Source of the DNA: Nitrospira japonica
Lineage (GTDB): Bacteria; Nitrospirota; Thermodesulfovibrionia; UBA6902
DNA length: 64,000 nucleotides
Assembly (NCBI GenBank): GCA_020723105.1
Contig: DYJL01000001.1
Location: 198,273-262,272, forward strand
Direction: 5' to 3'
Positions 1,795 through 20,470 of this stretch are shown one piece after another (positions within the stretch are counted from its first letter, which is position 1; each line of letters begins with the position of its first letter). Both the position numbers and the translations under genes were made by a program. Below the pieces are notes generated by a model. The model was not told where the DNA came from and ran no database searches. It worked only from the letters and a program-made list of their open reading frames with translations.

Positions 1795-2118
1795 CTTCGC
1801 CAAGTCTTTATTTGACAGCTTTTCTAATTTCACAAGATCGGCCGTAAGTTATTATCTGTGAATTTCATTATTTTCACTTTACTTATTTGTTTTGCATCGA
1901 GAGTCTAATTATATACCGTCCAATAATTAGACATTACCAGCCTCTTGCGTCTTTTTTCTCCTTATCGCATAACGTCATCTATATTTATAATTTGACTGAT
2001 TAATCAGCAGGTTATCGTCATTGTTTGATCAACCGTTTAGTGCTGGCATAACGGTTGCTTTATATCTATTCATTAATCAATCATTTGAAAAACAATCTAT
2101 TGAAAGGAGGATGGAGAG

Positions 2119-2541: not shown

Positions 2542-2892
2542 ATGTTAGCAAATATCTTAATATGCACACTAGTTATGTGGGGTCTGTCAGCAATAGCCGT
2601 AACACCTTTAGCAAAAAGATGGTTTGAAAATGCGGTAGCTGCCAATCCGGCACTTGCAACAGCGGGTAATACAGGATCAATAAGTAATGACATGAATCCG
2701 GAGATGCAGAAGCTTTATAACATAATTTACATCAAAGCTGATGTGCTTGTGATGGGGGTTGCAGGATTTATTGCGGGACTGGCTGGTTTTCCGTTAATTG
2801 GATTTGCATGTAAGGCAAATGCATGGCCCGGCATGATAGCAATGATCGGATTGAGCTTTCTGAGTTTTCACCTGACCGGAGGTCCTCGTTAG
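2542..2892 (+). CDS. Small membrane protein, unknown function
   Basis: SD GGAGGA precedes the ATG. Hydrophobic segments. Tandem with the previous gene. Confidence 0.5.
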   Translation: MLANILICTLVMWGLSAIAVTPLAKRWFENAVAANPALATAGNTGSISNDMNPEMQKLYNIIYIKADVLVMGVAGFIAGLAGFPLIGFACKANAWPGMIAMIGLSFLSFHLTGGPR

Positions 2893-3180
2893 TTTATGAG
2901 TTCGATCAACCAATGTATTACGGCAGGGAGGGGAGTTTCCTATGGTTGGGAGACTCCTCCGGGCTCTACATTGCAATGTTTCGTACATTTATTCTGTATG
3001 GATATAGTTTTTGGAAGATTTAATTAACGACTCACGTGTTTCAGTAAAAAGTATTACTCAAAATAGTCGATCATGTAACTCAGAGGGCGGGAGCATGTCC
3101 AGTAATTTAAGCTCAAACTTAAATGGAGATTCAAAATAAATACACTAACATAATTTAACTTGAACCACTTTGTATATTAA

Positions 3181-3993: not shown

Positions 3994-4264
3994 TTGTTTG
4001 GTTCTACCTTTCTGTATTATCTTTACAATATGCCGTCTCGTTCCTTTACATAGCTCAGATATGATCTACTGTGTTTAACACCTCATGTTAGTTTCATTTA
4101 TTGTTCATTTTAAAAAGAGACATTAATAATTTTCAGAAAAAAATAAATTATCTGAAAAAATCTTTTTTACTAAAAAAAACTTTCTCTCAATCTCCATTTC
4201 TGTTTTCACTTGGTACATAATTGTGCATCTAAACTTTCTTGCATTTTGATGGGTTGTCTCATTA

Positions 4265-5368
4265 ATGCCTCACATTGGAGGTGCAATGCAAACGAAAATG
4301 CTTTTTACAATCAATGAATTCACCGCACTGTCTTTGCGCTTAAACCTGATCTTGTCGGTCAAACCCATTGACTGGAAGGCTGTGCTATTGTGCATATTCA
4401 ACAAACAGTTAACGGCTGCTAATGAAGACAATCTGCTTGAGACATTATCTTACCTTAACGATGCATATGGAGAACAAAAACGCAAGGTTGGCACCCCTGC
4501 CATACTGCATCCTATTCGCTCGGCTGCAATCCTTGCCTGGGCGCATGATACGATCAACACATTGGATGTACTAACATCACTTCTGCATGACAAGGACGAG
4601 GATATACTGTCCAACAGCTACTCACCAGATAGGTGGACTAAACTTGAAGAAAGTTTCGGCAGGCTTGTTAATAAGATCGATAGTCGCGAGGAGAAATGGT
4701 TTCTCAATGAAAGAATCCATTTTTTAGCGAGAGAAAAAGAAGAAACATACAATGATTACCTTTCCCGTCTTTTCTGTCAGGCAAAAGAAACTCCTGAACT
4801 GATACGCGTAAAACTTGCTGACCGGTTGGACAACACACTTGACCTCCGATTGGATTTCTATGATCAAACTGAGGCCGTCAACTTCTATCATCTTATTTTC
4901 ACGATTCTTTTTGACGTTAAATACGCTGGTTTGAACATTCATGGGCAACATCCCTCTGCGCGTAAGATACGTGGTTCCAAGCGTCTTTATGAAATATTTA
5001 AAAACTACTGCCTGTTTTCTATCCTGTATTCAGGTGACATAGAGCTTGATGAGACTTCTCAGTGGCTGTTGCGTTCAATCGCAGATGCCAGTATCAGTGA
5101 GGCACAGAATGTTCTTCTTCATATCTTTGCCTATCATCTAAGAGAACCTGAAGATCAAAGAAGGGTGATCAGGAGTATCTTGGATTCTCACGGAGATGAA
5201 ATTATTGGAGATAACAGATTATTAGACAGATTAATAAAAAATACTTTTAACCTTGAAAACAAAAGTAACCGGAAGCAAAGCTTGGATGATCTATATGATG
5301 ATAAAGAGCGGATGGTAAAGACTGCCATAGCTTTCGTAGTGCTTTTTAACAACTACCTGTTTGAGTAA
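4265..5368 (+). CDS. HD-domain protein resembling the RelA/SpoT (p)ppGpp hydrolase domain (SAH/Mesh1-like)
   Basis: GTPAILHPIRSAAILA...LLHDKDED matches the Rel/SpoT hydrolase H..HD..ED block. RVKLADRLDNTLDL matches the conserved KLADRLHNMRTL helix. Confidence 0.6.
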   Translation: MPHIGGAMQTKMLFTINEFTALSLRLNLILSVKPIDWKAVLLCIFNKQLTAANEDNLLETLSYLNDAYGEQKRKVGTPAILHPIRSAAILAWAHDTINTLDVLTSLLHDKDEDILSNSYSPDRWTKLEESFGRLVNKIDSREEKWFLNERIHFLAREKEETYNDYLSRLFCQAKETPELIRVKLADRLDNTLDLRLDFYDQTEAVNFYHLIFTILFDVKYAGLNIHGQHPSARKIRGSKRLYEIFKNYCLFSILYSGDIELDETSQWLLRSIADASISEAQNVLLHIFAYHLREPEDQRRVIRSILDSHGDEIIGDNRLLDRLIKNTFNLENKSNRKQSLDDLYDDKERMVKTAIAFVVLFNNYLFE

Positions 5369-5553
5369 TGTAGTTGTTCACATTTGTTCACTGGCTTAAT
5401 TATTTTATTATGAGAAATATATTAGCCTCTTTCGTATATATAGACGGCCGCTCCTGTTTTTAATATTGTTTGGCGGTGATATTGCAAAATGCTTTTATGT
5501 AACTGAGAGTGCGGAGCATGCCCAAAACAAATAACCTAATAAAGGAGACAATC

Positions 5554-6498
5554 ATGAAACTCGAAAATGTCGGTAGTTTTGAGAGGGTGGAGATGGGGGG
5601 GAAGACTGTTTTAATCCCTAATCCTACAGATATCCCTGAGTATAAATTCATTGGCAGGGAGCGGATCATCGAAAAGGCGCTTGCGGCCTGGACGTGTATT
5701 AACGGGACAACTCCCCTGAACTTCAGACTCTACGGGCCTCCGGGGATCGGGAAGAATGCGCTTGTGTATGAGCTTGCGCGTATTCTCAATAAAGACCTTT
5801 ACATCATCAACGGACATGAAGAGCTTGGGCCTGAGGATGTTGCGTGTTCTGCAACCATGACATCGAAGAACACGATAGAGTATGTGGCGTCACCATTGTT
5901 TGCGGCAATGCTTAGGGGGGGGATTTTCTTCTTCGATGAGATAGGTAAGACCCCTCAGTCAGCTCTCGATCCGCTTGCCTCTGTGCTTGATGACCGGAGG
6001 AGTATGACATCGGTGCTTGCGGGGATACATCTGAAGGCGCATCCTGATTTCCTCTGCTGTGCGGCATTGAATGAAGATGAAGAAAACGGCGTAGGCCTGC
6101 CGGGCTTTATTGATGAACGAACACGGCCTGCCATCTATGTCGGATATCCGTATGTTTCAGAAGTTGAAGAGATCCTGATGAGCAGGATGAAGGAGGTGCC
6201 GGATATCTGGGTGAGGGCGCTGCTCTCGGATTTTAAACATGTCAATCTGTCCACACGTAACGCTATCACCCTTCTGGGATACGCATACAGGCTTGCAAAA
6301 AAGGGAAACGGTAAATCAGCGCCCCTAAGCGAGAAGGAAATAAAAGAATACATTGCCAATGCGTACAAGCACATAAAAGCGGGAGATGAAGACCAGAAGA
6401 AAGAACATAACGCGAACCTTAAAAAAGGCTTAGAAACTTACACAGGAGATTTATATGCTAACCAGATCGTTAGTCAGAGTAAGGAAACAGTACATTGA
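5554..6498 (+). CDS. MoxR-type AAA_5 ATPase
   Basis: Walker A LYGPPGIGKN and Walker B FFFDEIGK. The LGPEDV / QSALDPL...DDRRSMT pattern is typical of MoxR/CbbQ/NorQ ATPases. SD AAGGAG lies 6 nt before the ATG at 5554; the track ORF begins at 5509. Confidence 0.75.
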   Translation: MKLENVGSFERVEMGGKTVLIPNPTDIPEYKFIGRERIIEKALAAWTCINGTTPLNFRLYGPPGIGKNALVYELARILNKDLYIINGHEELGPEDVACSATMTSKNTIEYVASPLFAAMLRGGIFFFDEIGKTPQSALDPLASVLDDRRSMTSVLAGIHLKAHPDFLCCAALNEDEENGVGLPGFIDERTRPAIYVGYPYVSEVEEILMSRMKEVPDIWVRALLSDFKHVNLSTRNAITLLGYAYRLAKKGNGKSAPLSEKEIKEYIANAYKHIKAGDEDQKKEHNANLKKGLETYTGDLYANQIVSQSKETVH

Positions 6499-6665
6499 GA
6501 AAAGATTGAAAGTTCATAAGATTAAGAAAAGAGAACTCAGTAGACAGTAGTCAGAAGAAAGAAAGCAGGAAGTAGGCAGAAGAACGAAGTCCATTCTGAA
6601 TTCTGGATTCTTCTGTTTTAACTTTCGAACTTACGAGCTTATGATCTTTCACTCTTTATTGCTTT

Positions 6666-8762
6666 ATGAAAAAGAAACAGTACATCAAGCATAACAAGTT
6701 CGACAATTTGTATGTGATTCCTTACATACGGGGGAGGCTGGTGTTTGCAGAGATGGCGGCTCGTGCTATTGAAGAAGATAATTTTGAGCAGGTGGTGGCG
6801 GATTTACCGTTCTTCATGAATACGGGAGCACTCTGGGAAAAGGCTGTAAAGTTATTTCCTCAGGTAAGTTCACTGCTCATTAAGAGAAACGATGATACGT
6901 TTGCGGTCTTTCCCTTTGTCCCTAATGATGCTGCCTGCATGTCGCTTGCTGCTGTTAAGCTGCTGAAGGATTGGGGCAGGGATATTGAATTGCGGTGTAT
7001 AGATGATTCACATATCATTCACTATCCGCGCGAATCCCTTGTTCAGCCGGTTATCAGGATGCGGGATGATCAATTTGTTTTCACAGAGGGCCTCGATGAA
7101 TATTACAATGCCATGTATGCTCAGCTTGAGTCTTCACTGAGCGAAGTGACAGAGGACCAGCGCTTATTCAATGAATACAGGGCAATCCTTGTGAGTGAAC
7201 GGATCAAAGGATGTATGGCCGGAGGCAAAAAGACCCTTTTTGTATGTGAGTACAGGCTCTGGTGGCAAATACAGAAAACACTGAATGCGTCCCATCCAAA
7301 ACCCGTTCACTATTATGCCCAGAAATGGAAGGATGTACAGGCAGCACACGTCCTTAGTGATCCGATTGATCTCTGGAAGCGCGGGGCGATGGATGATTCA
7401 ACGACTATAGTGAAGCAGTTCTATGACAGATTTCAGTCCGCTTCTTTAAAGACATTTGACAAGCTTGATGAAATTGCCGCATTGATCAAAAATCACTTCA
7501 AGGTGGAGTCACAGAGAAGGCGGGGCTGTTCATCGATCAGAAAGACCATCTTATTTTACCAGTACCTGCAGAACCGGGTTGCAGCAGATCTACGCATTAC
7601 GCCTCTTGTTATCCGGCATCTTTATGACAGCGCCCATTCATGCATCGGGAGGCAGTATGCAAAAACGCTGGCTGTGAAATGTCTTGAGTATCCTTATTCA
7701 GGACAAGACAGTGTTCAGCGCTTTATTGTGATCGGGCAAAATTCAGTTACCATGGGTACAGAGGGTTTCGATATCCCCCATTCAGCGAAAAGACTTTTTC
7801 TCTATACAGGCACTGATCAGTATTCATATGATCATTTTCATGATGACCTGTCCTGGGCTGTAGACAGAAATACCATGCTCGACGATTTCTTCAATAACCT
7901 CAGCGACAGTGAAAAGAATGGTCTGTCAAATTACACCGGCTTCAAATGGGAGATCAGAAGGGACTTCAAGCTCATTGAGAGTGTATGCAGTGATGCTCGA
8001 GAGAGGATCATGCGGGAGCAGTATAAAGAAAAAAACATGAGGAGCTGGGGCTCAATGGGGGATGGGATAGAATGGAAGGCGACGATCGCGTCAAGGGCCA
8101 GCGGAGAGGATTCGGTATACATAAGAAAGAGAAGCATGAACAGAAATAACGGCAAAAAACTTAATGAGTTCACACCAGTGATATTTATATTTACGGATGA
8201 CATGAAAGGACATGTAGTGAAGCATCTGGAAGAAGGTAATGAGGCTTATCATTACTATGCTTCGGAAGAAAAGGATTTTATTGATTTCAGAAAGATGAAG
8301 GTTGATTGTGTCCATTATGCGCTTATGACCTATCCGGAAGAGAAAGTTGTCTATCCGAAGCATATCTTCAGGTGTGATCTGTCATCCCTTGCGCTCATGT
8401 ATACGAGAGGGTTGTTAAAGGAGCAGAGGTTCAAACAGCTCATAAAAAGACCTGAGAGATATTTGTGCCGTACATTTCCGCAGCTCGACACAGAGATCAA
8501 GAACTTTCCATTATCTGAGATCGGCGTTGCGTGGGGCTTGAAATACGCTGAAGAGTCTGTTCTGGTCATTGCGAAGGACGGATGGAGATCTTCAGAGGAG
8601 CTGGCAGAGTTTGCCGAAAATAAAAAAACGCGTATCATGCATCAGCCATTGTCGCGGTTCAGCCCTGACGTGATAGAGCGGCTCAGAAAATTATACCTAA
8701 TATCGACCGACCTGGAGTACCATCCCGGCCGCGACAGTATTGTGAAGAGGTTTGTGGATTAG
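6666..8762 (+). CDS. Uncharacterised 698-aa protein, paralog A of a tandem family
   Basis: Shares N-terminal (MKKKQYIK..NLYVIPYIRGRLVFAE), internal (KTLFVCEYRLW; FYQYL.NR; FTPV.FIFTDD) and C-terminal (GVAWGLKYAEE..IAKDGW) blocks with ORFs 8899..10995 and 14487..16586. Confidence 0.7.
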   Translation: MKKKQYIKHNKFDNLYVIPYIRGRLVFAEMAARAIEEDNFEQVVADLPFFMNTGALWEKAVKLFPQVSSLLIKRNDDTFAVFPFVPNDAACMSLAAVKLLKDWGRDIELRCIDDSHIIHYPRESLVQPVIRMRDDQFVFTEGLDEYYNAMYAQLESSLSEVTEDQRLFNEYRAILVSERIKGCMAGGKKTLFVCEYRLWWQIQKTLNASHPKPVHYYAQKWKDVQAAHVLSDPIDLWKRGAMDDSTTIVKQFYDRFQSASLKTFDKLDEIAALIKNHFKVESQRRRGCSSIRKTILFYQYLQNRVAADLRITPLVIRHLYDSAHSCIGRQYAKTLAVKCLEYPYSGQDSVQRFIVIGQNSVTMGTEGFDIPHSAKRLFLYTGTDQYSYDHFHDDLSWAVDRNTMLDDFFNNLSDSEKNGLSNYTGFKWEIRRDFKLIESVCSDARERIMREQYKEKNMRSWGSMGDGIEWKATIASRASGEDSVYIRKRSMNRNNGKKLNEFTPVIFIFTDDMKGHVVKHLEEGNEAYHYYASEEKDFIDFRKMKVDCVHYALMTYPEEKVVYPKHIFRCDLSSLALMYTRGLLKEQRFKQLIKRPERYLCRTFPQLDTEIKNFPLSEIGVAWGLKYAEESVLVIAKDGWRSSEELAEFAENKKTRIMHQPLSRFSPDVIERLRKLYLISTDLEYHPGRDSIVKRFVD

Positions 8763-8861
8763 GCAATTTATAAAGTTCGTAAGGTTGAGAAAAGGAGATA
8801 GTAGGAAGAAGGTAGTAGGCAGAAGGCAGAAGAAGGATGGCCATTCTGGATTCTTCTGATA

Positions 8862-8873
8862 AGCTTTCAAGCT
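8862..8873. promoter_or_regulatory. Perfect palindrome AGCTTTCAAGCT upstream of paralog B (candidate operator); adjacent half-site repeat GTCAAGCT..CCAGCTT
   Basis: Seen directly in the sequence. The same 12-mer recurs at 14441..14452 upstream of paralog C, and a degenerate version (CTTTCGAAC) lies upstream of paralog A. Confidence 0.4.
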
Positions 8874-8898
8874 GTCAAGCTGGCCAGCTTTAACTGTT

Positions 8899-10995
8899 AT
8901 GAAAAAGAAACAATACATCAGGCTGACTGGATTTGAGAACTTGTATGTGATCCCTTACGTTCGAGGCCGGCTGGTGTTTGCGGAGCTTGTGGCCCGTGCG
9001 ATAGAGGAGGATGGGTTTGAGCAGGTTATAGTTGACCTTCCATTTTTTCTGAATAAAGGAGGTGTATGGGAAGAGGCGGTGAAACAGTTTCCTCATGTAA
9101 GTTCACTATATTTCAGAATAGAAGACGGCCGCTTTGCAGCGATCCTCTTTACCCCATCTGATGCAGTATCCACTGCGCTCTCGTCTATTCAGATCCTCAG
9201 GGAATGGGGAAACAGCATTGACCTTCAGTGTATCGATGATTCACGGGTAATTCATTATCCCAAAGGGAGCCTGGCCTTTCCGGACGTCAATGTGGGCGAT
9301 GACTACTCTGTATTTATCCAGGGACTGGCTGAATATTTTAACTGCCTCTACGATCAGCTCGATGGTGAATGGAAAGAGGTCAGCAAAGATCAGAGGTTCT
9401 TCAATGAGTACCGGGCAGGTCTTATCAGCGACCGGCTCAGGGGTTATCTGAGGGGCGGGAAGAAGACTCTCTTTGTGTGTGAATACAGGCTGTGGTGGCT
9501 TGCAAGTAAGATGTTTATCAATGAGCGTCCTGTTCCGGAGCACTATTTTTCTCATCCCTGGAAAGACGTCAAGGCAGTCCTTGTGGTTGATTCCCCTCTC
9601 AAATTATGGGTGAAGGGGGCCCTTGATGATTACCCTGCTGTGGTTTATGAATTTTATAATAATTTAAGAAAGGGAATCACCGCGTCGTTTGATAAACTTG
9701 CAGCCGCAGAGACTATTCTCAACCGATCATTCCATCATGACCGTGATCACAATGTCGATGGAGCTTCTTTGCGCAGGGTCATCATTTTTTACCAATATCT
9801 CAGGAACAGGCTGCTCAGTGAATGCCGCCTGACGCCTCTGGTGCTCCGGCACCTCTACGATGCGGCATATTCCTGTCTTGGGAAAAAAATGGCAAACAGT
9901 ATCACAAAGAATCTGCTTTTCTATCCGCAGGGTAAACATAACAGGAAGAAAAACCTGAGCATCAGGGAGGACAGCAGTATAGAGAACGATCATCCGGATG
10001 ACATCAGGAAGCTTTCAAAAGGGTTGTCCTCTATGAGTGGTGAAAATAAATTGCCTATGGATACATTGTATGACGGATACCGTAAACCGGTAGAAGAACT
10101 GCAGATCATTAGCAGGCTTTACCCAAGGCTGGAGAGCAATATTTTAACATCTGAGGGGGAATGGATAGGTATAACCTGGTCGATCAAGGCGGATTATTAT
10201 CAATACGAGCTTGCCGCTATTAAACTGAGAAATGTGCTGGCAGGAAGAGATCAGCGGCGCAGGATAATAAAAAGCAGTGGTTCAATACGAAATGGCATCC
10301 ACTGGAAAGCTACTATAAACGCCCGCGCATTGAAAGAAGACACTTTGTATGTTAAGCACAAATACCGGCAGAAGAGACAGAAAAGAAATAAGCTTGACGA
10401 ATTTACTCCGGTCACCTTTATTTTTACCGACGATTTCAGGGTACACTGGTACAGGGAAATATACTCATCCAACAGATCGCGGAGATACCTCGACCTGAAC
10501 CCGTATACGTCCTTGCCGAATGGCTATCCACCTCCTGATCTGGTCATTAATGCTCTATACAGTCTTTATGATATGAAAGAACTGAGCGGGGGACATATTG
10601 TTAAACGGGCAGTCTCTTCCATTACACTCCTGTATAACAAGAGGGTTGTCGATGATGCCCGATATGATGCTATCAGCAGCAGGCGTGACCGGTTCCCTGT
10701 TCGCTGCGGTGCCATCACGGACACTGAACTCATATCCTTTTCCATACCTGAAAAGGGCATCGCCTGGGCAGTCAAATACGCAGAACATACAGTGGTAGTC
10801 GCAGCAAAACCCGGATGGAAACCGTCGCAAAGCCTTGCCGAATTCAGCAGGCAAAGAAATATCGAGATCGCCCACGTGCCCCTGTCGGTATTTCAGAAAG
10901 AATTTATAGGCCGACTGAAGACCATGTACTTCACCTCAACAGCAATAAAGAGACGGCCTGACAGGGATGAGATTGTGGGGAGGTTTATTGAGTGA
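8899..10995 (+). CDS. Uncharacterised 698-aa protein, paralog B
   Basis: Same conserved blocks as paralog A. Conserved upstream element including the palindrome AGCTTTCAAGCT. Confidence 0.7.
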   Translation: MKKKQYIRLTGFENLYVIPYVRGRLVFAELVARAIEEDGFEQVIVDLPFFLNKGGVWEEAVKQFPHVSSLYFRIEDGRFAAILFTPSDAVSTALSSIQILREWGNSIDLQCIDDSRVIHYPKGSLAFPDVNVGDDYSVFIQGLAEYFNCLYDQLDGEWKEVSKDQRFFNEYRAGLISDRLRGYLRGGKKTLFVCEYRLWWLASKMFINERPVPEHYFSHPWKDVKAVLVVDSPLKLWVKGALDDYPAVVYEFYNNLRKGITASFDKLAAAETILNRSFHHDRDHNVDGASLRRVIIFYQYLRNRLLSECRLTPLVLRHLYDAAYSCLGKKMANSITKNLLFYPQGKHNRKKNLSIREDSSIENDHPDDIRKLSKGLSSMSGENKLPMDTLYDGYRKPVEELQIISRLYPRLESNILTSEGEWIGITWSIKADYYQYELAAIKLRNVLAGRDQRRRIIKSSGSIRNGIHWKATINARALKEDTLYVKHKYRQKRQKRNKLDEFTPVTFIFTDDFRVHWYREIYSSNRSRRYLDLNPYTSLPNGYPPPDLVINALYSLYDMKELSGGHIVKRAVSSITLLYNKRVVDDARYDAISSRRDRFPVRCGAITDTELISFSIPEKGIAWAVKYAEHTVVVAAKPGWKPSQSLAEFSRQRNIEIAHVPLSVFQKEFIGRLKTMYFTSTAIKRRPDRDEIVGRFIE

Positions 10996-11346
10996 GGGTT
11001 GTGGTAAGGAGAAAACATTTTATCAAATTTGTTTTGATCATTATCGCTATTATTTTATTTAACATACTCCTTTGCTATGTGACGAGATTGCCGCGCTCCA
11101 AAAATTATATACCTCCGCACAGAATGTTCAGGTTTAGTCCTATTTGTGAACAGAAGGATGCAGAGTCAAGGAAAACATTGGAAGAAGCAACCGGGGATTT
11201 AAAATCGGGAAAATAGGAAATAGGGATGGAAGACCAGGAAACACCAGACAGGAAACATAATGATGAAGAAGGGTAACCCCAAAGTGTTATGAGCAGCAGA
11301 TATTTGTACTATTACTTTCATCGATATTGCATTGTAAATGTAAAGA

Positions 11347-13839
11347 GTGAAATCAGACATGTCATTTGATCTTTACTATAAAAAGAATACAAAAGAGCTT
11401 ATAGTTCTTTACAAAGATACGGAAAGGGATGTGGTTTGCTTTATCTCTATTGAAAGGCATCCAACAGCAAAACAGAGGATCGTTGGGGTTGATGACTGGA
11501 AGCAGGTCCTGCCGGAGTTCAGGCCATTCAGCTTTAATAGGGCTTATTCCTGTTTCAGAGATCGAACAATATCTGACAGTTCTGATGAATATGAATACAC
11601 ATATCATAAGAGCGTACTTGACCGCTTTTTTCACGATTCATTAGATCAGACAGAGGTATCACTTCTTGACCGGTACAACATCAACCTGTTTCTAATCCTT
11701 CTCTATATCAGGAAAGCGACGATCAATACTTTGATAGAGAACAATCCTGCGTTAGCGCTTATGCTGATCCATGATTCATGCAATTCATCCCTGCCGTTCG
11801 AATCAGATGAGCTGTGGGCGAACATCAGGGAGACGGCTCAATTAATGCCATCGCAGATCGTAAAGAATCTCTATAACATTAAGACAAGCAGAAAGGCTTC
11901 AGAGATTTTTCAGAAGGTCGATACAAAAGAACTGCCATGTATTGAGCCTCTCCTGCAGCTGATAGAAAGTCTAAGGGATTGCTGGGTCATGGGGATACTT
12001 GAGAATCTCAACAGGATATCTTATGAGGTATTGCTCATAATCATTGAGCGAAAGAACAGGTCTGTGATAAGCGCGGGATTCCTGACCTCTGTGAATGCGT
12101 CATCGGGAAGTCCTGTTTCAGCATCTCATATGCTTCAGTGGCTGCATGAGAACCATGTCACGATCCATTTCCCACTAACAAATATGCGCCACCTGCGCAC
12201 TATATACGAGCATATAGTGAAGGAGGAAGACCTCCCTGACGTCGTGGATGAATTTAATTCCGGGCCTTTGATCACATGTCAATCAGATCCAGGGCCACAG
12301 AATGATAGTGTCAAAGAACGAGATCCCATTCTAGAAGTTCCCCATAGAATGGAGAAGGCATCAGATATATTGCTCGCAATGCAGCATGATATACTGGGGC
12401 TTGGAAAAAAGACATACCAAAAGCTCCTGGATCTTGAGAAGGATATACCGGTCATTGATAGACCGGCTGCTGTGCTTAAGGCTGTATCCGTCACAAAGGA
12501 ATTCTTTCTTCTTAAGGAAAGAAAGATAACGCACCTGCTCGAAACATATGATCAATCAAAGGCATTCAACAGCATCGGCAATTCCGAACTTATCAATGAA
12601 CAGTTTCCGGAGCTCGAAAGACTGATCGATCCCGAATTTCTTAGTGAGTATGTGGCATCTGCTGACAGTGATAACTATAGCAGGCGGCTGCGTGGACACG
12701 CCAGAGCATTGAACCGCCACAGGCTGCTTCATGAAATTATTATGGATGAGATCAGAGCTGTAATTAAATGCAGCCAGGCCAAATCCATGACGATCAAGGA
12801 ACTGAAGAGGGTGATAGCTGCAACAGCGCTTCATGATTATAGAAATAAAGATGTACTGCAGGCATTGAAACTCGCAATGGAAATGAATAATCCCATTCTC
12901 AGGGGAAACGCCGTTGCGGAGCTTTTGTTTACTCGCATACCAGCATATATAAGATCACATTTTACGGATGATCCGAAGGTCATTGTCTCCCTGAGGCAGC
13001 GCCTGCTTTCAAAAATATCAAAGGTCAAGGGGCCTCCAAATTTAAAAATAGCGCTGTTCCATCTGGCGCCCAGATCAAACACCCGGAAGAAGGATGATTT
13101 CATCGCAATGATGAACCGGCTACTCTCATTCATCGAGAAAACTGAGATCGTTGATGAAGAATCAAAGATCTCGGTCCGGAGTTTTATTCAGAATGTGACA
13201 GGAGAGATCAGACGTCTAGATTCTATTTACAAAAAACTGTTCCTGACTGAAAAGGAACTTCAGGACGTTTATGGACTGTACAGGCCGAACAACAGACTGG
13301 TCACATGCAATATGCAGCATATAGAGAGGATCATATATGAACACTGCGATATACAGAAACTGTATATGTATCCATGCAAGGATTATCTGGATCTCGAAAA
13401 ATACCGCTGGTCTCATGATTGCAGCAAGGACACGTTGGGAGTAAACCAGCTCAGGACCCCTCAGTTCTTTAATGTCAGGTTATTCAAAAATGACAAGGAA
13501 TATTGCGGGAACATATATATGCTCCAGATGGAATGCGATTCGAGGATTTATCTCCTTGTCGATCGTATCCAGACAGCAAGTTTTGACACGAGGTATGTGA
13601 TGTTCTACGACACCCTGAAGGACGCCTTCCAAAAGATGTTCCGCGACCTTTCCTTTAATGAGATATTACTGCCGGACATAAATGTTTCTAACAATGCATC
13701 ACTTAATAAATTGTTCCATGACTCAAAAAAGAAATATATCAAAAAGAAGGTCAGCTTTGATCTGCATGACGATATGAGACGTAATTTTGAGTGCCTTAGA
13801 AGCGATTCGTTTCATGTTTTATACTCAAAAACGAGTTAG
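11347..13839 (+). CDS. Hypothetical 830-aa protein
   Basis: Long ORF between paralogs B and C. No recognisable motifs. Confidence 0.55.
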   Translation: MKSDMSFDLYYKKNTKELIVLYKDTERDVVCFISIERHPTAKQRIVGVDDWKQVLPEFRPFSFNRAYSCFRDRTISDSSDEYEYTYHKSVLDRFFHDSLDQTEVSLLDRYNINLFLILLYIRKATINTLIENNPALALMLIHDSCNSSLPFESDELWANIRETAQLMPSQIVKNLYNIKTSRKASEIFQKVDTKELPCIEPLLQLIESLRDCWVMGILENLNRISYEVLLIIIERKNRSVISAGFLTSVNASSGSPVSASHMLQWLHENHVTIHFPLTNMRHLRTIYEHIVKEEDLPDVVDEFNSGPLITCQSDPGPQNDSVKERDPILEVPHRMEKASDILLAMQHDILGLGKKTYQKLLDLEKDIPVIDRPAAVLKAVSVTKEFFLLKERKITHLLETYDQSKAFNSIGNSELINEQFPELERLIDPEFLSEYVASADSDNYSRRLRGHARALNRHRLLHEIIMDEIRAVIKCSQAKSMTIKELKRVIAATALHDYRNKDVLQALKLAMEMNNPILRGNAVAELLFTRIPAYIRSHFTDDPKVIVSLRQRLLSKISKVKGPPNLKIALFHLAPRSNTRKKDDFIAMMNRLLSFIEKTEIVDEESKISVRSFIQNVTGEIRRLDSIYKKLFLTEKELQDVYGLYRPNNRLVTCNMQHIERIIYEHCDIQKLYMYPCKDYLDLEKYRWSHDCSKDTLGVNQLRTPQFFNVRLFKNDKEYCGNIYMLQMECDSRIYLLVDRIQTASFDTRYVMFYDTLKDAFQKMFRDLSFNEILLPDINVSNNASLNKLFHDSKKKYIKKKVSFDLHDDMRRNFECLRSDSFHVLYSKTS

Positions 13840-14010
13840 AAAGAAAGAATAAAAACAGAATACAGTAGTCAGAATAAATACAGTTCGTAAGGCTGGCAAG
13901 TTAAAAGCTATTAAAATAGAGGCGTTAGAGCGCATTGCTTTATTCTTAACTTTAAGAACATTATAAACTTTATAAACCTTGTAAATTATATTTTTTCCAA
14001 GTGATGGCAA

Positions 14011-14340
14011 ATGAATAAAAGGAAAGTGCTTTTTGTGTGTACACAGAATTTGATGCGAAGTCCGACTGCGGAGGAAGTATTCAGGGATTATCCGGAGATT
14101 GAAACGAGGTCTGCGGGCATTGGATTTACTTCAGAAACATATTTGGAAGAGTACCTGCTGAAGTGGGCTGACATTGTTTTTGTCATGGAAAAGAAGCATA
14201 AGGATCTAATCGTAAAGAAATTCGGGCAAACAGCACGTTATACACGGATCATATGTCTTGGGATCCCTGATGTATACAATTATATGGATGATGACTTGAT
14301 AGAAGTTCTAAAGATCAGGGTGACGCCATTTTTAAAATGA
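14011..14340 (+). CDS. Low-molecular-weight phosphotyrosine phosphatase / ArsC-family protein (short form)
   Basis: N-terminal VLFVCTQNLMRSPTAE fits the CX5R(S/T) P-loop of the LMW-PTP family. Confidence 0.6.
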   Translation: MNKRKVLFVCTQNLMRSPTAEEVFRDYPEIETRSAGIGFTSETYLEEYLLKWADIVFVMEKKHKDLIVKKFGQTARYTRIICLGIPDVYNYMDDDLIEVLKIRVTPFLK

Positions 14341-14440
14341 TATCCATCAAGGTTGAAGGTTGGAAAGATAAGTAGACAGTATGCAGTGGACAGAAGGCAG
14401 AAAAAAGAAGAAAGCCCTCGATTCTGTATTATTTCTGTTC

Positions 14441-14452
14441 AGCTTTCAAGCT
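14441..14452. promoter_or_regulatory. Palindrome AGCTTTCAAGCT upstream of paralog C
   Basis: Identical 12-mer to 8862..8873. Followed by TTTTCAGCTTTCTATCTGGCCAGCTT, which parallels the paralog B leader. Confidence 0.4.
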
Positions 14453-14486
14453 TTTCAGCTTTCTATCTGGCCAGCTTCTTACTATT

Positions 14487-16586
14487 ATGAATAATAAACA
14501 ATACATCAAACTGACAGGATTCGACAATTTGTACGTGATCCCCTACATACGTGGCAGGCTGGTGTTTGCGGAGCTGGCGGCGAGGGCGCTTGAAGAGGAT
14601 CAGTTTGAACGTGTGGTGGTGGATTTCCCGTTCTTTATGAACAATGACAACCTTCTTGAAAAAGCCTCACAAATGCTGCCTTATGCAAGCTCACTGCTAC
14701 TGAAGAAAAAAGATGGCACTTTTGTTTCCATCCCGTTTGTGCCGAATGACGCGGCCTGCATCACTGTAGCAGCTGTGCAGTCGTTAAAGAAAGACGGGAT
14801 ATCCATTGAGCTTAAATGCATTGATGACTCTCAGGTCTTCAATTATCCGCAGGAGAGTTTAATGCAGTCCGAAATAAATTTCACTGATGACTATTTCGTG
14901 TTTACAGATGGCCTGGAGAATTTCTTTGGGCCTCTGTACATGCAGCTTGATCAGTCCTTGAGAGAGTGCTCCAGGGACCAGCGTTTCTTTAGTGAATACA
15001 GGGCCGGTATTATCGCCGAACGTCTGGCAGGGCTCCTCCGACAGGGGAGTAAGACGCTTTTCGTGTGCGAGTACCGGCTCTGGTCTTTAGTCTCAAGCAT
15101 GCTTGAGGTGGGATCAGTTAGAAGAGGGAACGGTTTTCATCTTTTATGGAAGGACCTCAAGGGCGCGATGGTCTATGAAGATCCCTATTATTTCTGGGCG
15201 CATGGTCTGCTGGATGATTATCCGTTCGCGGTGGAACAGTTCTATAACAAGTTCAGGCTCGGCAGTGTCCGCATGTTCGACAAACTCAAATGCATTGAGG
15301 AGCTTGTTAAGAATTCAATCCACAGGTGCGCTGGAAAGGAGAAGGACAGTTTATCGATACGCAGGCTTATTTCTTTTTATGGGTATCTTGGCACGATGGT
15401 CACAGGTGCCCGTCGCTTTACGCCCCAGCCGCTTATACACCTTTATGACTCGGCGAATTCATGTCTCGGAAAGAGATTTGCGAAGTATATTGCAAAACAG
15501 TTCATGAAATACCCTATCCCTGACAGACAAAGGATCCAGGGCTTTTTAAATATTAAAGAAGGACAGATCGTTACATTACATAAGAAGTTCAATATCCCTG
15601 ACCTGTCGGAGTACCGTTATTTCAATACCGGGGGTACAGAATATTCATTCGACACACTGCAGGATGGCGATCACTCACCTGAAGATCTGAAGAATTTTAT
15701 CTTTAAGCTCGATCCATCGTTAGACAATAAGACCATCAAATCACTTGGTAATAACTCTTTTATGAACTGGGCTGTTCAGTCGGACTATTATATGCATGAG
15801 ACAGCGTGTGGAAAGTTGCGTGACATAATAAACAGAGAGCGCCTTCACGAAACTGCTAAAAAGAGTATGGGCCCGATGGGAAAGGGGATCCACTGGAAAA
15901 GGACGATCAGTTCAAAAGCGCTGGGCGAGGACAACATCTATATCAGATTGAAAAGCAACGTAAAAAAAGCCCTGAAGAACAGGATAGATGAATATACCCC
16001 GATAACATTTATTTTTACAGATGATTTTTGTAATCATGGAAGCAGTACAATCCATGATTCCAATATTACCAACAGGAACATTGAACTTGGTAATTCTGCG
16101 TTCTCAGATAAAAGTGATCCACCCCCGGATCATGTTTACTCAGTTTTCCATACGTTCAGTGGTGGAACTATATATTATGACGGGCACGTGGAAAGAAGAC
16201 AGATTTCCTCAATAACATTTTTATATACCCGTCATACCATGGGTTTACAGAGATATGCCGCTATCATGAAGAGGCCTGAAAGATTTCAGTGCCGGATCTC
16301 TCCCGGGTCTGATCAAGAGGTCCGTAATTTCCCCCTGCCGGAAACCGGTATCGCATGGGCTGTTAAATATGCTGAACATACAGTTATTATCGCAGCTGTC
16401 AACAGCTGGAAGCCGTCAGATACGCTGAGAGAATTTGCGAGGTCAAAAGGGGTAAAGATCCATACGATTCCTCTTTCGAGCTTTCAGCAGGATTTTATAG
16501 AACGTCTGAGAAGCCTTTATTTCACATCGACGCAGGTGAAGACGCATCCTGACGTGGACAGAATAGTGGAGAGGTGTATTGAATAA
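14487..16586 (+). CDS. Uncharacterised 699-aa protein, paralog C
   Basis: Conserved blocks as in paralogs A and B. Conserved 5' leader. Confidence 0.7.
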   Translation: MNNKQYIKLTGFDNLYVIPYIRGRLVFAELAARALEEDQFERVVVDFPFFMNNDNLLEKASQMLPYASSLLLKKKDGTFVSIPFVPNDAACITVAAVQSLKKDGISIELKCIDDSQVFNYPQESLMQSEINFTDDYFVFTDGLENFFGPLYMQLDQSLRECSRDQRFFSEYRAGIIAERLAGLLRQGSKTLFVCEYRLWSLVSSMLEVGSVRRGNGFHLLWKDLKGAMVYEDPYYFWAHGLLDDYPFAVEQFYNKFRLGSVRMFDKLKCIEELVKNSIHRCAGKEKDSLSIRRLISFYGYLGTMVTGARRFTPQPLIHLYDSANSCLGKRFAKYIAKQFMKYPIPDRQRIQGFLNIKEGQIVTLHKKFNIPDLSEYRYFNTGGTEYSFDTLQDGDHSPEDLKNFIFKLDPSLDNKTIKSLGNNSFMNWAVQSDYYMHETACGKLRDIINRERLHETAKKSMGPMGKGIHWKRTISSKALGEDNIYIRLKSNVKKALKNRIDEYTPITFIFTDDFCNHGSSTIHDSNITNRNIELGNSAFSDKSDPPPDHVYSVFHTFSGGTIYYDGHVERRQISSITFLYTRHTMGLQRYAAIMKRPERFQCRISPGSDQEVRNFPLPETGIAWAVKYAEHTVIIAAVNSWKPSDTLREFARSKGVKIHTIPLSSFQQDFIERLRSLYFTSTQVKTHPDVDRIVERCIE

Positions 16587-17167
16587 TGATCATTCAACTT
16601 AAAGAATATAAAACATTTTTGATAACTGCTGCAATTGCTATAATCTTTACGTTCGCTCTGATATATTTTGTTTTACTGCCCGAGCTTTCTCATAAGCCAC
16701 AGACGATTATCAAATATAAAATTATTCAAACAAATGAAGATGAGTGCATTTCAACACCATGCGGTAAAAGCGTTAATAGTCCGGGCATGATAATTTTGGG
16801 GGTCTCAAATGATAAGACCTATGGGTATACACAGGAGAATCCAATTAAGGTAGGAGGATATTCAGAAAAAGACGGCCCTGATAATGAGAGACGATACCTT
16901 AATTCCATCTATGGACCAAATGGAGAAATTATCGGATATACGAGGGAAGGCAGCTGCTGTTCTTTCAGAACATTGAACGGTATGGAAGGATTCGGTCTCC
17001 TTGATAGATTCAAAATCTCTTATGAAGGACTGAAAGAGCCGGTCATCCTTTATCTGAACATGTATGACCATGAGCTCCCCAAAGTGCCGTTCGGGTTTAC
17101 TGTAAAAACTGAGATCAAAGTTATTCAGAAAAACCTTATCTTTAATTTTGTGGATAGGGGAAAATGA
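16586..17167 (+). CDS. Membrane-anchored hypothetical protein (N-terminal TM, Cys-containing ecto-domain)
   Basis: Start ATG overlaps the paralog C stop (TAATGA), indicating translational coupling. One N-terminal hydrophobic helix. Confidence 0.5.
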   Translation: MIIQLKEYKTFLITAAIAIIFTFALIYFVLLPELSHKPQTIIKYKIIQTNEDECISTPCGKSVNSPGMIILGVSNDKTYGYTQENPIKVGGYSEKDGPDNERRYLNSIYGPNGEIIGYTREGSCCSFRTLNGMEGFGLLDRFKISYEGLKEPVILYLNMYDHELPKVPFGFTVKTEIKVIQKNLIFNFVDRGK

Positions 17168-17567
17168 GAGACTGATAAGATTAGAAGGTCCATAAAGTTA
17201 GAAAGTTGGAATATTATTACAATTTAGTTGATTGAAAAACCTAATGAACTGTTTAACTTTATAAACATGTCCACCCAAGATATTGTATAGAATACTCCAA
17301 TCTTCATCTAATTCTAGTGACATGTGGTAATTTGTGGACTTTAGTGGACATAGTGTTTGCAGAAGCGATTCCGTCAAAACAATGGCACGAAGATCTTTGT
17401 AAGATTTATAAAAATAAAAAATATGGAGTCAGTAGTAAGGAGTCAGGATGAAAGAATAAAGGAAACTATTCTGAATTCTGACTCCTTAATTCACTTTTTC
17501 TTAATGTCTTCTTTTGAAGGCCTTCTGGAGTCTGTTTACCCGGATTAGCATAAGGGCATAGAATATT

Positions 17568-17816
17568 ATGAAAGATTTAAATATGAGGAAGGACTTTAGC
17601 AGATTTGTGGGATCGCGGATAAGGTCCTTCAGGGAACAGGCGGGTTTGACCCAGATGCAGCTTGCGTTCATGTCGGACCTGGACCGGTCTTTCATACAGA
17701 AGGTTGAGCACGGCAGGCAGTCGATATCATTTGAGAATATGTGTGAGATAGCGAAATGTTTGAAGCGTCCGTTGTCTGATTTTGTACCATTAGTAAAAGA
17801 GGAAGCCGAAGGATGA
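17568..17816 (+). CDS. XRE-family helix-turn-helix transcriptional regulator
   Basis: GLTQMQLAFMSDLDRSFIQKVEHGRQSISFENMCEIAKCL is a Cro/C1-type HTH. Confidence 0.7.
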   Translation: MKDLNMRKDFSRFVGSRIRSFREQAGLTQMQLAFMSDLDRSFIQKVEHGRQSISFENMCEIAKCLKRPLSDFVPLVKEEAEG

Positions 17817-19259: not shown

Positions 19260-19304
19260 AATTAAGGTTTGAAAGTTAGAAAGCTTGAAGGTTGAGAAGA
19301 TGGG

Positions 19305-20435: not shown

Positions 20436-20470
20436 TACATTTAACCACAGAGGTCTCAGAGAATAAAAAG

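Follow-up and report, generated by a model that had tools for sequence, protein, structure and literature searches.

A MoxR-class ATPase gene followed by three ancient paralogs, its putative partners, with a shared leader element in a Nitrospirota gene cluster

The gene cluster described here is best explained, with a probability that we put at roughly 0.55, as one ATPase with three specialised partner proteins (A, B and C) whose genes share a locus-specific leader element. The three partners are ancient paralogs and are probably non-catalytic. The leaders that precede their genes have stayed far more alike than the genes themselves.

Organization of the locus

The window, meaning the whole stretch of DNA analysed, comprises 64 kb of the chromosome of an uncultured Nitrospirota (Thermodesulfovibrionia-like). 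All of the features described are on its forward strand, and the same-strand gene cluster extends from 2119 to 17167. The first conserved gene of the cassette (4265..5368) encodes a 367-aa HD-domain protein that resembles (p)ppGpp hydrolase domains of the RelA/SpoT type (partial match to NCBIfam spoT_relA; the PDB matches are RelA/SpoT hydrolase domains). Its ortholog in a related Nitrospirota MAG (locus L001) is 70% identical and occupies the same position. The only motor gene in this locus follows (5509..6498); it specifies an AAA+ ATPase of the AAA_5 (MoxR/NorQ/CbbQ/midasin) class (Pfam AAA_5, 63 bits), whose PDB matches are midasin AAA modules (E 1.6e-29), NorQ and CbbQ. Next come the genes for paralogs A (698 aa, 6666..8762), B (698 aa, 8899..10995) and C (699 aa, 14487..16586), with the sizes that a preliminary description of this DNA had given.

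Between paralog B and the leader of C lies a 3.3-kb spacer (10996..14340). It contains an orphan ORF of 830 aa (11347-13839), unrelated to the paralogs and without match in family, PDB and profile searches, and a truncated LMWPc/ArsC-like fragment (14011-14340) covering only positions 1-40 of the 144 of the LMWPc profile. An ancestral A-B-C array was probably interrupted here by insertion of the spacer. At the other end, the stop codon of paralog C is overlapped by the start of a gene (16586..17167) for a 193-aa protein with an N-terminal transmembrane helix (hydrophobic helix, KD 2.68). Family searches gave no match for this protein; homologs are encoded downstream of a family gene in L046 (68% identity) and L017 (40%), making it an accessory gene that recurs with the module. 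An XRE-family HTH regulator of 82 aa (17568..17816; Pfam HTH_3) is encoded further downstream and is kept with the cassette in L001, where its ortholog (73% identity) has the same relative position.

A, B and C are ancient paralogs

Aligned end to end, the proteins are 40% (A-B), 42% (A-C) and 45% (B-C) identical, with conserved blocks between divergent segments, in agreement with the 40-50% first estimated by eye. The coding DNA is 51-53% identical, third codon positions 33-35%, and dS is saturated. Over the first ~70 codons the paralogs use the same codon slightly more often (about 50-60%, compared with about 40%). Each paralog has orthologs in other uncultured bacteria that are closer to it than its neighbours in the locus: A is 53% identical to P0002, B 68% to P0010, and C 73% to P0006 and 70% to P0015 (gene 1 of L001). 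The order in L001 is HD - AAA_5 - C-type - A-type - XRE, with identities of 70, 81, 70, 53 and 73%, respectively. In regions 351-450 and 501-600, identity is 21-35% from one paralog to another and 42-78% within an ortholog pair. Since outside orthologs are closer, dS is saturated and the type-specific regions are kept within ortholog pairs, sequence comparison identifies A, B and C as ancient paralogs with no recent amplification. The same evidence speaks against the proposal that the array arose by tandem amplification for diversity or dosage, in the manner of surface or antigenic families. That comparison also fails on cellular location: no signal peptide, transmembrane or hydrophobic segment is found in A, B or C, and the proteins are the putative partners of a cytoplasmic AAA+ ATPase. 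The family is cytoplasmic; the AF2 model is confident and shows a globular protein with several domains (pLDDT 87.8, pTM 0.80).

Distant relationship to YehM/DUF5682 and altered TIKI motifs

This family of ~700-aa proteins is rare and unannotated. It has no match in Pfam, NCBIfam, PADLOC or PHROG, and among 5.8 billion proteins we identified 33 close homologs, plus 538 representatives of a wider superfamily. The superfamily HMM aligns with E. coli YehM at 27-29 bits, colinear along ~300 residues, and alignment of the superfamily profile with YehM/DUF5682 by hhalign gave a probability of 95.3% (E 2.4e-8). Distant members show sub-threshold TraB_PrgY_gumN matches and, in one case, a DUF5682 match. 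As the close-family profile by itself does not detect YehM, the link rests on intermediate sequences; through these, the family is classified as a remote branch of the YehM/DUF5682 superfamily. We found no experiment or solved structure for either the A/B/C family or YehM/DUF5682.

The N-terminal half of superfamily members bears TraB/PrgY/GumN (TIKI-type) motifs. TIKI enzymes are defined by a 2His/2Glu set (PMC6254334). Distant branches keep both canonical histidines, but in the A/B/C clade these are replaced, by R/K and by L, and one motif glutamate has become aspartate. The motif PSIHxRL is changed to PYIRGRL, AVELP to VDLP and FVCGAAHW to FVCEYRLWW. Residues invariant in the close family are the acidic D46, D88, D113, D134, D243 and D244, and C194.

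One ATPase gene for three putative partners

In all 23 informative close loci (23/23), an ortholog of the AAA_5 gene lies directly upstream of a family gene, and in most other genomes the two genes overlap or abut. The E. coli pair yehL (MoxR) - yehM has the same ATPase-then-partner order. Elsewhere an A-, B- or C-type gene occurs alone with one ATPase, so the three types are not obligatory. A VWA protein is the usual companion of MoxR ATPases; none was found among the window ORFs tested. Judging from gene order, the single ATPase would serve A, B and C as clients or adaptors. These proteins are probably non-hydrolytic or re-purposed and specialised by their type-specific middle and C-terminal regions, an arrangement of one motor with three specificities. 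HD hydrolase, ATPase, A, B, C, the 193-aa membrane protein and XRE regulator would then form one signalling or conflict-type module.

The leader element

A similar non-coding leader before each paralog gene, already pointed out in the preliminary description, was confirmed. Leaders A (6499..6665, 167 nt), B (8763..8898, 136 nt) and C (14341..14486, 146 nt) score 109, 115 and 127 bits in cmsearch, and each takes up all of the ~140-170 nt between the stop codon before it and the ATG. The purine-rich GTAGGCAGAAG-type stretch, the CCATTCTG(R)ATTCT..TTCTG segment and a T-rich run into the start context are all present, and the paralogs share the start context ATGAA(A/T)AA(G/T)AAACA(G/A)TACATCA. The lack of an obvious Shine-Dalgarno sequence before the three ATGs was likewise borne out, but it is not distinctive, being shared by about half of the window's first-start ORFs. 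The element is composite, made of phased AAGNTT 8-mers, an AGNAGNN heptamer array, a purine/pyrimidine hairpin and a second set of 8-nt AAGCTNTC repeats. Leader A contains AAGNTT 8-mers, the AGNAGNN array, the hairpin CAGAAGAA..TTCTTCTG and 8-nt AACTTACG repeats.

Pairwise identity among the leaders is 76-81%, far above neutral expectation given the 51-53% of the coding DNA and the 33-35% of its third positions. In the 64 kb, leader model R1 finds the three leaders and a partial fourth copy upstream of the XRE gene (17400..17494; 27.6 bits, E 1.2e-7, model positions 9-109), which has a 10-bp hairpin AAGGAGTCAG..CTGACTCCTT and no AAGCT repeats; it has zero matches in 42 related loci. Within the sequence searched (window and 42 loci), the leader is thus classed as a lineage-specific element restricted to this locus. 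Its copies may have been kept similar by selection or gene conversion. Most likely, it is a shared cis-acting element, operating at the RNA or DNA level, that would equalise or co-regulate the three partners and the XRE gene; conservation beyond neutral expectation fits such a role.

The 12-mer AGCTTTCAAGCT is found, as initially noted, at 8862-8873 and 14441-14452 (leaders B and C) and nowhere else in the window. The notion that it is a perfect palindrome proved wrong, its reverse complement being AGCTTGAAAGCT. It reads AGCTT-TC-AAGCT, a 5-nt inverted repeat (AGCTT/AAGCT) with a 2-nt spacer. Tandem Repeats Finder places it within 8-nt direct-repeat arrays (AAGCTGTC, AGCTTTCA), and it is two neighbouring units of such a repeat. 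Leader A has ACTTTCGAACTT instead. The 12-mer is also missing from the XRE-proximal copy and from the 18 related loci searched, including the one with the orthologous XRE gene. Leaders B and C share a common ancestor, so the two occurrences of the 12-mer do not count as independent events. Imperfect as a palindrome and missing from these places, AGCTTTCAAGCT is not supported as an operator. Leader B does contain a palindrome that is perfect, the 14-bp AAGCTGGCCAGCTT (8877-8890); its 12/14 copy in leader C, TATCTGGCCAGCTT (14464-14477), is equally far from the ATG.

Alternative explanations

The leader could instead be a structured RNA within a polycistronic transcript, in which the sequence following the stop codon pairs with the AAGCT repeats preceding the next ATG and hides an SD-less start. 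Translation or stability of each paralog would then depend on whether the ORF upstream is translated, or on a trans-acting factor. We hold this possible but doubtful. In its favour, the element runs exactly from stop codon to ATG in 3/3 cases, full-length MFE folds close it end to end, and reverse-strand self-matches in cmsearch reveal the leaders as imperfect palindromes. RNAalifold pairs columns 10-28 with 134-152, with six both-side changes and 86% of cells paired, as compared to 34-56% in slid controls. In the consensus structure of the three sequences, 88.9% of cells are paired and 7 pairs are compensatory, each of five observed measures being reached by 2-7 of 500 shuffles. The overlapping or abutting genes of other genomes would fit a need for coupled expression. 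However, MFE is no better than in dinucleotide shuffles (z +0.36, +0.08 and -0.36), and the terminal duplex beats shuffles only in A (z -2.7; B, -0.4, and C, -1.3, not significant). Moreover, 5' and 3' ends taken from different leaders pair no less well than those of one leader, and the three sequences that supply the covariation (n=3) are also those on which the structure was built. We consider it unlikely that the leaders are a small non-autonomous repeat (an imperfect palindrome of tandem repeats, REP/ERIC/MITE-like) whose similarity reflects recent spread or gene conversion rather than function. Palindromic architecture and size (135-170 nt) suit such a repeat, as do its presence before a non-paralogous gene, its absence from the orthologous locus in L001 and from the 42 related loci, and the raised same-codon use early in the genes, compatible with old conversion tracts. 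Tandem 7-/8-nt units of this kind also occur in other intergenic regions of the genome (AGTAGTC at 54383; heptamer arrays at 40121, 40171, 42478, 62790 and 63131). Nonetheless, all significant copies in the 64 kb sit inside 11 kb of the locus, with boundaries that match stop and start codons, and terminal inverted repeats or target-site duplications were not seen. The copies differ by 19-24%, with indels, which argues against recent spread.

Two further readings concern the proteins as well. A, B and C might be active enzymes, proteases or esterases of the TIKI/TraB type, and act as toxic or signalling effectors that the ATPase switches on, as in NTPase-gated defence. The superfamily ties, the invariant acidic residues and C194, and the conflict-type neighbours of homologous modules agree with this, but the loss of both histidines throughout the clade, when distant branches retain them, and the empty PADLOC search make it quite improbable. 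Still less probable, in our estimate, is the original proposal of a recently diversifying surface, antigenic or immunity family co-repressed by a dimeric regulator, for example XRE, acting on AGCTTTCAAGCT. A link between leader and XRE is possible, as a partial leader lies 5' of the XRE gene and that gene is conserved with the cassette. Leader conservation, the 14-bp palindrome of B with its 12/14 copy in C at equal ATG offset, and a 28-nt repeat that L001 has before its own HD, C-type and XRE genes, hinting at locus-internal co-regulation in both genomes, point the same way. Against the proposal, the 12-mer is no palindrome and is missing from leader A, the XRE-proximal copy and the related loci searched. 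The copies are ancient, with orthologs elsewhere, the proteins have neither signal peptide nor transmembrane segment, and the candidate sites are 8-25 nt upstream of the ATG, at no identified promoter. For the XRE gene, a promoter scan found the promoter-like TTTACC-18-TAGAAT. Only 3 nt separate its end from the ATG, a hint of a leaderless mRNA; both the window and L001 have kept GTCTGTTTACC and ATAGAATATTATGAAAGA.

Genomic context and sigma-54-type sites

Genes near homologous modules encode DUF4062-STAND/NACHT NTPases, TIR, SLATT, RelA_SpoT-RyR, RHS, Ser/Thr kinases, PP2C and sigma-54 activators. The immunity-type flavour first ascribed to the family may be partly right, since STAND NTPases and similar conflict-type genes often adjoin such modules; the surface/antigenic part does not fit. 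Under the reading of one ATPase with three partners, a putative sigma-54 promoter, TGGCATAACGGTTGCT (2044..2059, pattern TGGYRY-N5-TTGCW), about 60 nt 5' of the first gene of the cluster, probably drives at least part of the module's transcription. In a shuffle control for this pattern, 12 of 100 shuffles reached at least two matches in the window. Three independent loci (L002/L003, L008/L017 and L019) have the same pattern immediately before their AAA_5 gene, and in L002 and L004 the module has sigma-54 activator genes as neighbours.

Three old paralogs in a chromosomal gene cluster

The same-strand ORFs A (6666-8762, 698 aa), B (8899-10995, 698 aa) and C (14487-16586, 699 aa) align from end to end with one gap, at amino acid identities of 40% (A-B), 42% (A-C) and 45% (B-C), and are indeed paralogs, as surmised when the DNA was first read. 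Their N-terminal 200 residues are strongly conserved, residues 351-450 and 526-595 divergent. The preliminary description took the tandem amplification to suggest selection for diversity or dosage, as in surface, antigenic or immunity-type gene families. A recently amplified contingency or antigenic family is contradicted by the coding DNA, which is 51-53% identical (33-35% at third positions) with saturated dS, and by the grouping of the copies with foreign orthologs. The nearest relatives are found in other genomes and not among the neighbours (A-P0002, 53% identity; B-P0010, 68%; C-P0006, 73%; C-P0015, 70%), A, B and C fall into three different clades of a neighbour-joining tree, and ortholog pairs retain 42-78% identity in the regions that differ most between the paralogs (21-35%). 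On these comparisons, the triplication is an old and stable sub-functionalisation, not a recent amplification or an ongoing diversification. Recent gene conversion of the 5' coding region was considered and rejected, same-codon use showing just a weak rise. The genes had been likened to surface or antigenic families; no hydrophobic segment, signal peptide or transmembrane segment was found in A, B or C, and this likeness is dropped.

Public gene calls for A, B and C are short at the N-terminus (P0001, 673 aa; P0016, 673 aa; P0009, 685 aa), omitting the stretches 6666-6740, 8899-8973 and 14487-14525 (14-25 residues). Since the residues left out include the family-invariant P19, Y20 and R24, the upstream ATGs are the real starts.

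The surrounding DNA is chromosomal, with genes for ThrRS, PheT and FtsW, biotin genes and a tRNA-Val; the best named PheT relatives all come from MAGs of Nitrospirae/Nitrospirota/Thermodesulfovibrionia (65-68% identity). A phage origin was rejected on the strength of these housekeeping genes, of a negative tblastn search of A against 50,697 phage records, and of the negative PHROGs result for A, B and C. A pattern match to a sigma-54-type promoter (2044-2059) lies upstream of the first cluster gene. It is followed, all on the same strand, by three small ORFs, a gene for an HD protein resembling the RelA/SpoT hydrolase domain (4265-5368), an AAA_5 ATPase gene (5509-6498) and paralogs A and B. 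After C, still on this strand, come a gene for a 193-aa protein with an N-terminal transmembrane helix, the XRE regulator gene (17568) and genes for radical-SAM/SPASM, FtsW/RodA-like, DivIC-like, M50 peptidase and GH18 proteins.

The 3.3-kb interval between B and C (10996-14340) holds an orphan 830-aa ORF with no detectable relative or domain, rejected as a fourth paralog (hhalign probability 0.2%), and a 109-aa ORF, a truncated gene fragment whose match to the LMWPc/ArsC-type phosphatase model is limited to positions 1-40. The interval looks like a later insertion into the A-B-C array.

Related loci preserve parts of this arrangement. L001, a Nitrospirota MAG, has a cassette of HD, AAA_5, C-type, A-type and XRE genes whose products are 70, 81, 70, 53 and 73% identical, respectively, to those of the window. 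Because single paralog types occur alone with an ATPase in two other loci (L046 and L047), an obligate A+B+C complex is not required.

Linkage to an AAA_5 ATPase

The product of ORF 5509-6498 matches Pfam AAA_5 with 63.3 bits; in the PDB it matches midasin (E 1.6e-29), NorQ (5e-9) and CbbQ (3.5e-7). An ortholog of this ATPase is encoded directly upstream of the family gene in 23/23 close-family loci with enough upstream DNA, a count that allows for over-extended ORF starts in five of them, and the two genes usually abut or overlap. In the window, there is one ATPase gene to three partner genes. In five distant, Acidobacteria-type loci the AAA_5 ATPase is absent from the position directly upstream. 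One of these five has a Pup-ligase-family protein (PF03136, 300 bits; L012 8064-9785) directly upstream of the TraB-like gene.

Two consecutive ATPase-partner pairs were observed in L004 (12144-15373) and L046 (4056-7247). The order in both is AAA_5 with a 700-aa close-family member, AAA_5 with a distant superfamily member of ~770 aa, then TPR and DUF4062-STAND NTPase genes. More generally, homologous modules have neighbours of the conflict type: DUF4062-STAND/NACHT-TPR NTPases, TIR, SLATT, RelA_SpoT-RyR, RHS and Ser/Thr kinases. In L002 and L004 the module also borders on genes for sigma-54 activators. Canonical sigma-54 promoter matches (TGGYRY-N5-TTGCW) were located by pattern in three independent loci, at 20-250 nt before the ATPase gene (L002 8803-8818; L017 9040-9055, the same site as L008 9004-9019; L019 785-800), for an estimated chance expectation of ~0.02 in those short windows.

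Some flanking genes recur as well. The 193-aa membrane protein has counterparts in L046 (68%) and L017 (40%), and GH18 proteins 62-63% identical to that of the window are encoded beside family genes in L017 and L019. The window's GH18 hydrolase and M50 peptidase genes (19305-23073) are 2.7-5.5 kb downstream of C, and homologs adjoin family genes in unrelated contigs; GH18, M50 and PP2C-related positions are L017 13392-14453, L019 3839-4927, L037 1129-1887, L012 7060-7992 and L015 266-1237. The PP2C gene (window 319-1050) recurs in four loci. The GH18, M50 peptidase and PP2C proteins may be further components of the module.

A family remotely related to YehM

A, B and C have no match in Pfam, NCBIfam, PADLOC or PHROGs, and PADLOC-DB 2.0 gave none for A, B, C, the ATPase, the HD protein or the 193-aa and 830-aa ORFs. 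Among 5.8 billion clustered proteins, 33 close homologs were identified, all of ~700 aa and all metagenome- or MAG-derived (Nitrospirota, Thermodesulfobacteriota/Desulfobacterales and Acidobacteriota). When 1.84 billion representatives were searched with a profile, these were extended to a superfamily of 538 matches at E<=1e-3, mostly of 650-800 aa. AlphaFold2, run with a 32-sequence alignment, predicts a confident globular multi-domain structure (pLDDT 87.8, pTM 0.80), for which Foldseek returned no significant match in the PDB or BFVD.

As concerns DUF5682 (PF18934, gathering threshold 26 bits), A, B and C gave no match at any reported E-value, nor did the 32 close-family members scanned at E<=5; E. 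coli YehM scores 330.8 bits against the same model. A distant superfamily member, P0123, reaches the threshold with 26 bits over a 45-residue stretch. A direct search from the close family was negative, its profile alone not detecting YehM; the link appears only with the wide superfamily profile. Built from 118 full-length members, this profile matches YehM colinearly in HMMER (27-29 bits; HMM 29-326/YehM 7-321), and hhalign aligns the two over 301 columns, confined to the N-terminal half, with a probability of 95.3% and E 2.4e-8.

The AlphaFold2 model has a predicted N-terminal alpha/beta domain with strands at the positions of the TIKI-type motifs. PF01963 (TraB_PrgY_gumN) does not match A, B or C; several distant superfamily members have sub-threshold matches to it (16-23.5 bits) on the second motif. 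TIKI-type enzymes are defined by a 2His/2Glu set, made up of two GxxH-type motifs plus Glu (PMC6254334). Distant branches and YehM carry PSIHxRL/GIRHH, AVELP/IEGP and FVCGAAHW/VCGGWHA, and the A/B/C clade has PYIRGRL, VDLP and FVCEYRLWW in the same columns. The 2His/2Glu set is not kept in A, B and C, which have R22 and L198 at the two His columns and D46 at the Glu column; several Asp and one Cys are invariant in the close family. Since both histidines are lost in the A/B/C clade, canonical TIKI-type hydrolase activity is unlikely. As judged by these searches, A, B and C lie outside DUF5682 and TraB_PrgY_gumN at the level of the models and of the catalytic motifs, while remote homology and gene order are shared.

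Comparison with known systems

Among known systems, the YehL-YehM pair of E. coli comes closest. In the yehL-yehM-yehP-yehQ operon, yehL encodes a MoxR AAA_5 ATPase, yehM a DUF5682 protein, yehP a VWA protein and yehQ a SWIM protein, and the order of an AAA_5 ATPase gene followed directly by that for a 700-760-aa protein is common to both loci, as is the colinear homology over the N-terminal ~300-340 residues. YehM is functionally as uncharacterised as A, B and C; the literature searched contains no mention of DUF5682, no function for YehM and no MoxR-TraB/TIKI link. There are differences: YehM has kept its His motifs (GIRHH, VCGGWHA), and the window has three partner genes per ATPase, added HD, 193-aa membrane protein and XRE genes, no YehP-like VWA gene (no window ORF scanned has a VWA match) and no adjacent YehQ-like SWIM gene. 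Its sole SWIM protein is encoded 13 kb away on the minus strand (30254-31174), beside an SNF2 helicase gene in a separate insert.

The likeness to the TraB/PrgY/GumN-TIKI group (PF01963; Ere esterases, ChaN, RRSP, Tiki) resides in the PSIH, ELP and VCGAAHW motifs of distant superfamily members; A, B and C themselves are roughly three times as large as a TraB domain, and their C-terminal half is unassigned. With the MoxR chaperone pairs NorQ-NorD, CbbQ-CbbO and RavA-ViaA, the module shares tight two-gene coupling with a large partner, and its ATPase is of the AAA_5 class, like NorQ, CbbQ and midasin. The partner is not a VWA protein, having no VWA match. As in MoxR-vWA ternary conflict systems (Kaur et al. 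2020, PMC7159879), the neighbourhoods of the module are rich in STAND NTPases, TPR proteins, kinases and phosphatases; that article contains no mention of TraB, TIKI, YehM, SWIM, GumN or PrgY.

A conserved leader precedes each paralog

Each paralog is preceded by a non-coding segment (6499-6665, 8763-8898 and 14341-14486) that fills the gap from the previous stop codon to the ATG. The three segments align over their whole length with pairwise identities of 76-81%, which confirms the similar leaders reported in the preliminary description. Given that the coding sequences are 51-53% identical with saturated dS, this similarity is real and greatly exceeds the level to which neutral decay would have reduced it since the duplication. 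All three leaders have the same make-up: two or three phased AAGNTT 8-mers directly after the stop codon, six to eight AGNAGNN heptamers, a hairpin around CATTCTGRATTCT whose arms are rich in purines (5') and pyrimidines (3'), and three or four AAGCTNTC 8-mers. The absence of a Shine-Dalgarno motif from the three starts was correctly noted; it is nothing special to them, as an SD-like motif is likewise missing from about half of the window's first-start ORFs.

A sequence model of the leaders (R1) scores 109-127 bits on them and detects a partial fourth copy upstream of XRE (17400-17494; 27.6 bits, E 1.2e-7) that is without the AAGCT repeats. The other matches at E<=0.02 are the reverse strands of the leaders and of the fourth copy and three weak matches of 10.8-12.3 bits (19268-19394, also on the reverse strand; 54375-54420; 43070-43173). 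The reverse-strand matches indicate that the leaders are imperfect palindromes. R1 found nothing in 42 related loci (490 kb), and the orthologous intergenic regions of L001 are unrelated to the leaders. At the gathering threshold, Rfam matched no leader, the tRNA-Val being its sole hit in the window. The leader is thus locus-specific as well as conserved far beyond neutral expectation.

L001 has a 28-nt repeat of its own, AAGTCCGTTCGCCTGGTATCAACAATTT, before the HD, C-type and XRE genes (249-276, 2722-2749, 7348-7375). As its sequence is unrelated to the window leader, both genomes have a repeated upstream element internal to the locus.

In the RNAalifold consensus structure, the sequence following the stop codon pairs with the AAGCT region (33 pairs, 88.9% of cells paired), with 7 pairs changed on both sides. 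Shuffled alignments reached the observed values in 2-7/500 cases and slid controls were 34-56% paired. Exceptional thermodynamic stability was rejected, the MFE z-scores of the leaders being ~0. The terminal duplex exceeds shuffles in leader A (z -2.7); those of B (-0.4) and C (-1.3) do not, and non-cognate leader ends pair as well as cognate ones.

Promoter candidates were rejected too. CTGGCCAGCTT in leaders B and C has AC in place of the -12 GC of a sigma-54 promoter, and the pattern scan yielded no leader match; sigma-70 promoter and intrinsic terminator counts equal the shuffle expectation, with no site common to the three leaders.

The 12-mer is a repeat junction

The 12-mer AGCTTTCAAGCT occurs at 8862-8873 and 14441-14452 and nowhere else in the 64 kb. 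It had been called a perfect palindrome and a likely operator. Its positions were given correctly, its symmetry was not: the reverse complement is AGCTTGAAAGCT, so that the 12-mer is an imperfect dyad with 5-nt arms around a TC spacer (5-2-5). Tandem Repeats Finder assigns it to the 8-nt direct-repeat arrays AAGCTGTC and AGCTTTCA; leader A has AACTTACG. The 12-mer is therefore a repeat junction. As a candidate operator for the XRE repressor it is not supported, since it is missing from leader A and from upstream of XRE and is not conserved with the regulator, being absent from the 18 related loci searched, including L001 with its 73% XRE ortholog. A true perfect palindrome of 14 bp, AAGCTGGCCAGCTT, is located in leader B (8877-8890), and leader C carries a 12/14 version (14464-14477) at the same distance from the ATG. 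Altogether, most of the operator and amplification model finds no support; the idea of a shared regulatory leader survives.

Interpretation

The comparisons place A, B and C as ancient paralogs of a MoxR-linked, YehM/TraB-related protein that has lost the catalytic histidines. As specialised partners, be it clients or adaptors, they would work with the ATPase within a module of the signalling or conflict type. We envisage the AAA_5 ATPase and a His-less TraB/YehM-like sensor or adaptor pseudo-enzyme as a so far undescribed module, driven by an NTPase and acting in conflict or signalling, of uncultured Nitrospirota, Thermodesulfobacteriota and Acidobacteriota. In this genome, three specificity variants would share one motor, and their output would be evened out by a structured leader dedicated to them, which is without counterpart in related loci and may feed back on XRE. 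We give this tentative reading, taken as a whole, about one chance in four.

The leader could be a shared cis element in either of two ways: as an RNA structure coupling or limiting translation in a polycistronic, possibly sigma-54-driven transcript, or as a DNA site bound by a regulator of the locus, for instance XRE. It is also possible that the leader is of repeat-element origin and has no function. The leaders resemble the ERIC, REP and MITE-like repeats and the short tandem heptamers of other bacteria, being imperfect palindromes of 135-170 nt that lie in transcribed intergenic gaps and are made up in part of 7-nt tandem units. Intergenic heptanucleotide arrays are also present at 40121-40191, 42478-42513, 54383-54402, 62790-62819 and 63131-63159, besides those inside the leaders; their sequences differ (AAGTTAA/AACTTTT, TTTTAGT, AGTAGTC, CTAACCC, TACCCCT, AGGCAGA), and AGTAGRCAGWAG-type matches number 10 for 0.75 expected. 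Heptamer arrays of other sequences elsewhere in the window indicate that the leader is partly built from a genome-wide repeat type. Unlike such elements, however, significant leader copies occur at a single locus within the 64 kb, and their boundaries coincide with stop and start codons. Non-coding DNA ~78% identical between genes with saturated synonymous sites makes the leader a good candidate for a new cis-regulatory element.

The analysis describes for the first time the anatomy of a rare protein family missed by current domain libraries, and ties it to the uncharacterised, widespread YehL-YehM (MoxR-DUF5682) pair, with one branch lacking the TIKI-type catalytic histidines. It suggests what MoxR ATPases may target where the VWA partner is absent, for which E. 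coli is a tractable test ground, and it corrects two attractive readings, the perfect palindrome operator and the recent amplification.

Other features of the window

A promoter-like TTTACC-18-TAGAAT arrangement ends 3 nt before the ATG of XRE (17535-17570), and the GTCTGTTTACC and ATAGAATATTATGAAAGA on its flanks have been conserved in L001, the Nitrospirota MAG (7440-7470). This arrangement suggests that the XRE transcript may be leaderless, as for cI.

Between 23879 and 30073 lie, in a row, a staphylococcal-nuclease-like gene and genes for a Gp3-like recombination directionality factor, a DnaG-type primase and a ribonucleotide reductase; this row may be a mobile-element remnant adjoining the cluster. 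A direct repeat of 173 nt (83%) plus 43 nt (86%), at 29901-30125 and 35591-35807, copies the 3' end of the B12-dependent ribonucleotide reductase gene (27986-30073). The 5.7-kb minus-strand segment between the repeats encodes the SWIM zinc-finger protein (30254-31174), an SNF2/DUF3670 helicase (31275-33944) and an ATPase_2/DUF234/ArsR-HTH protein (33946-35343), and has the appearance of an element that integrated at the nrdJ end.
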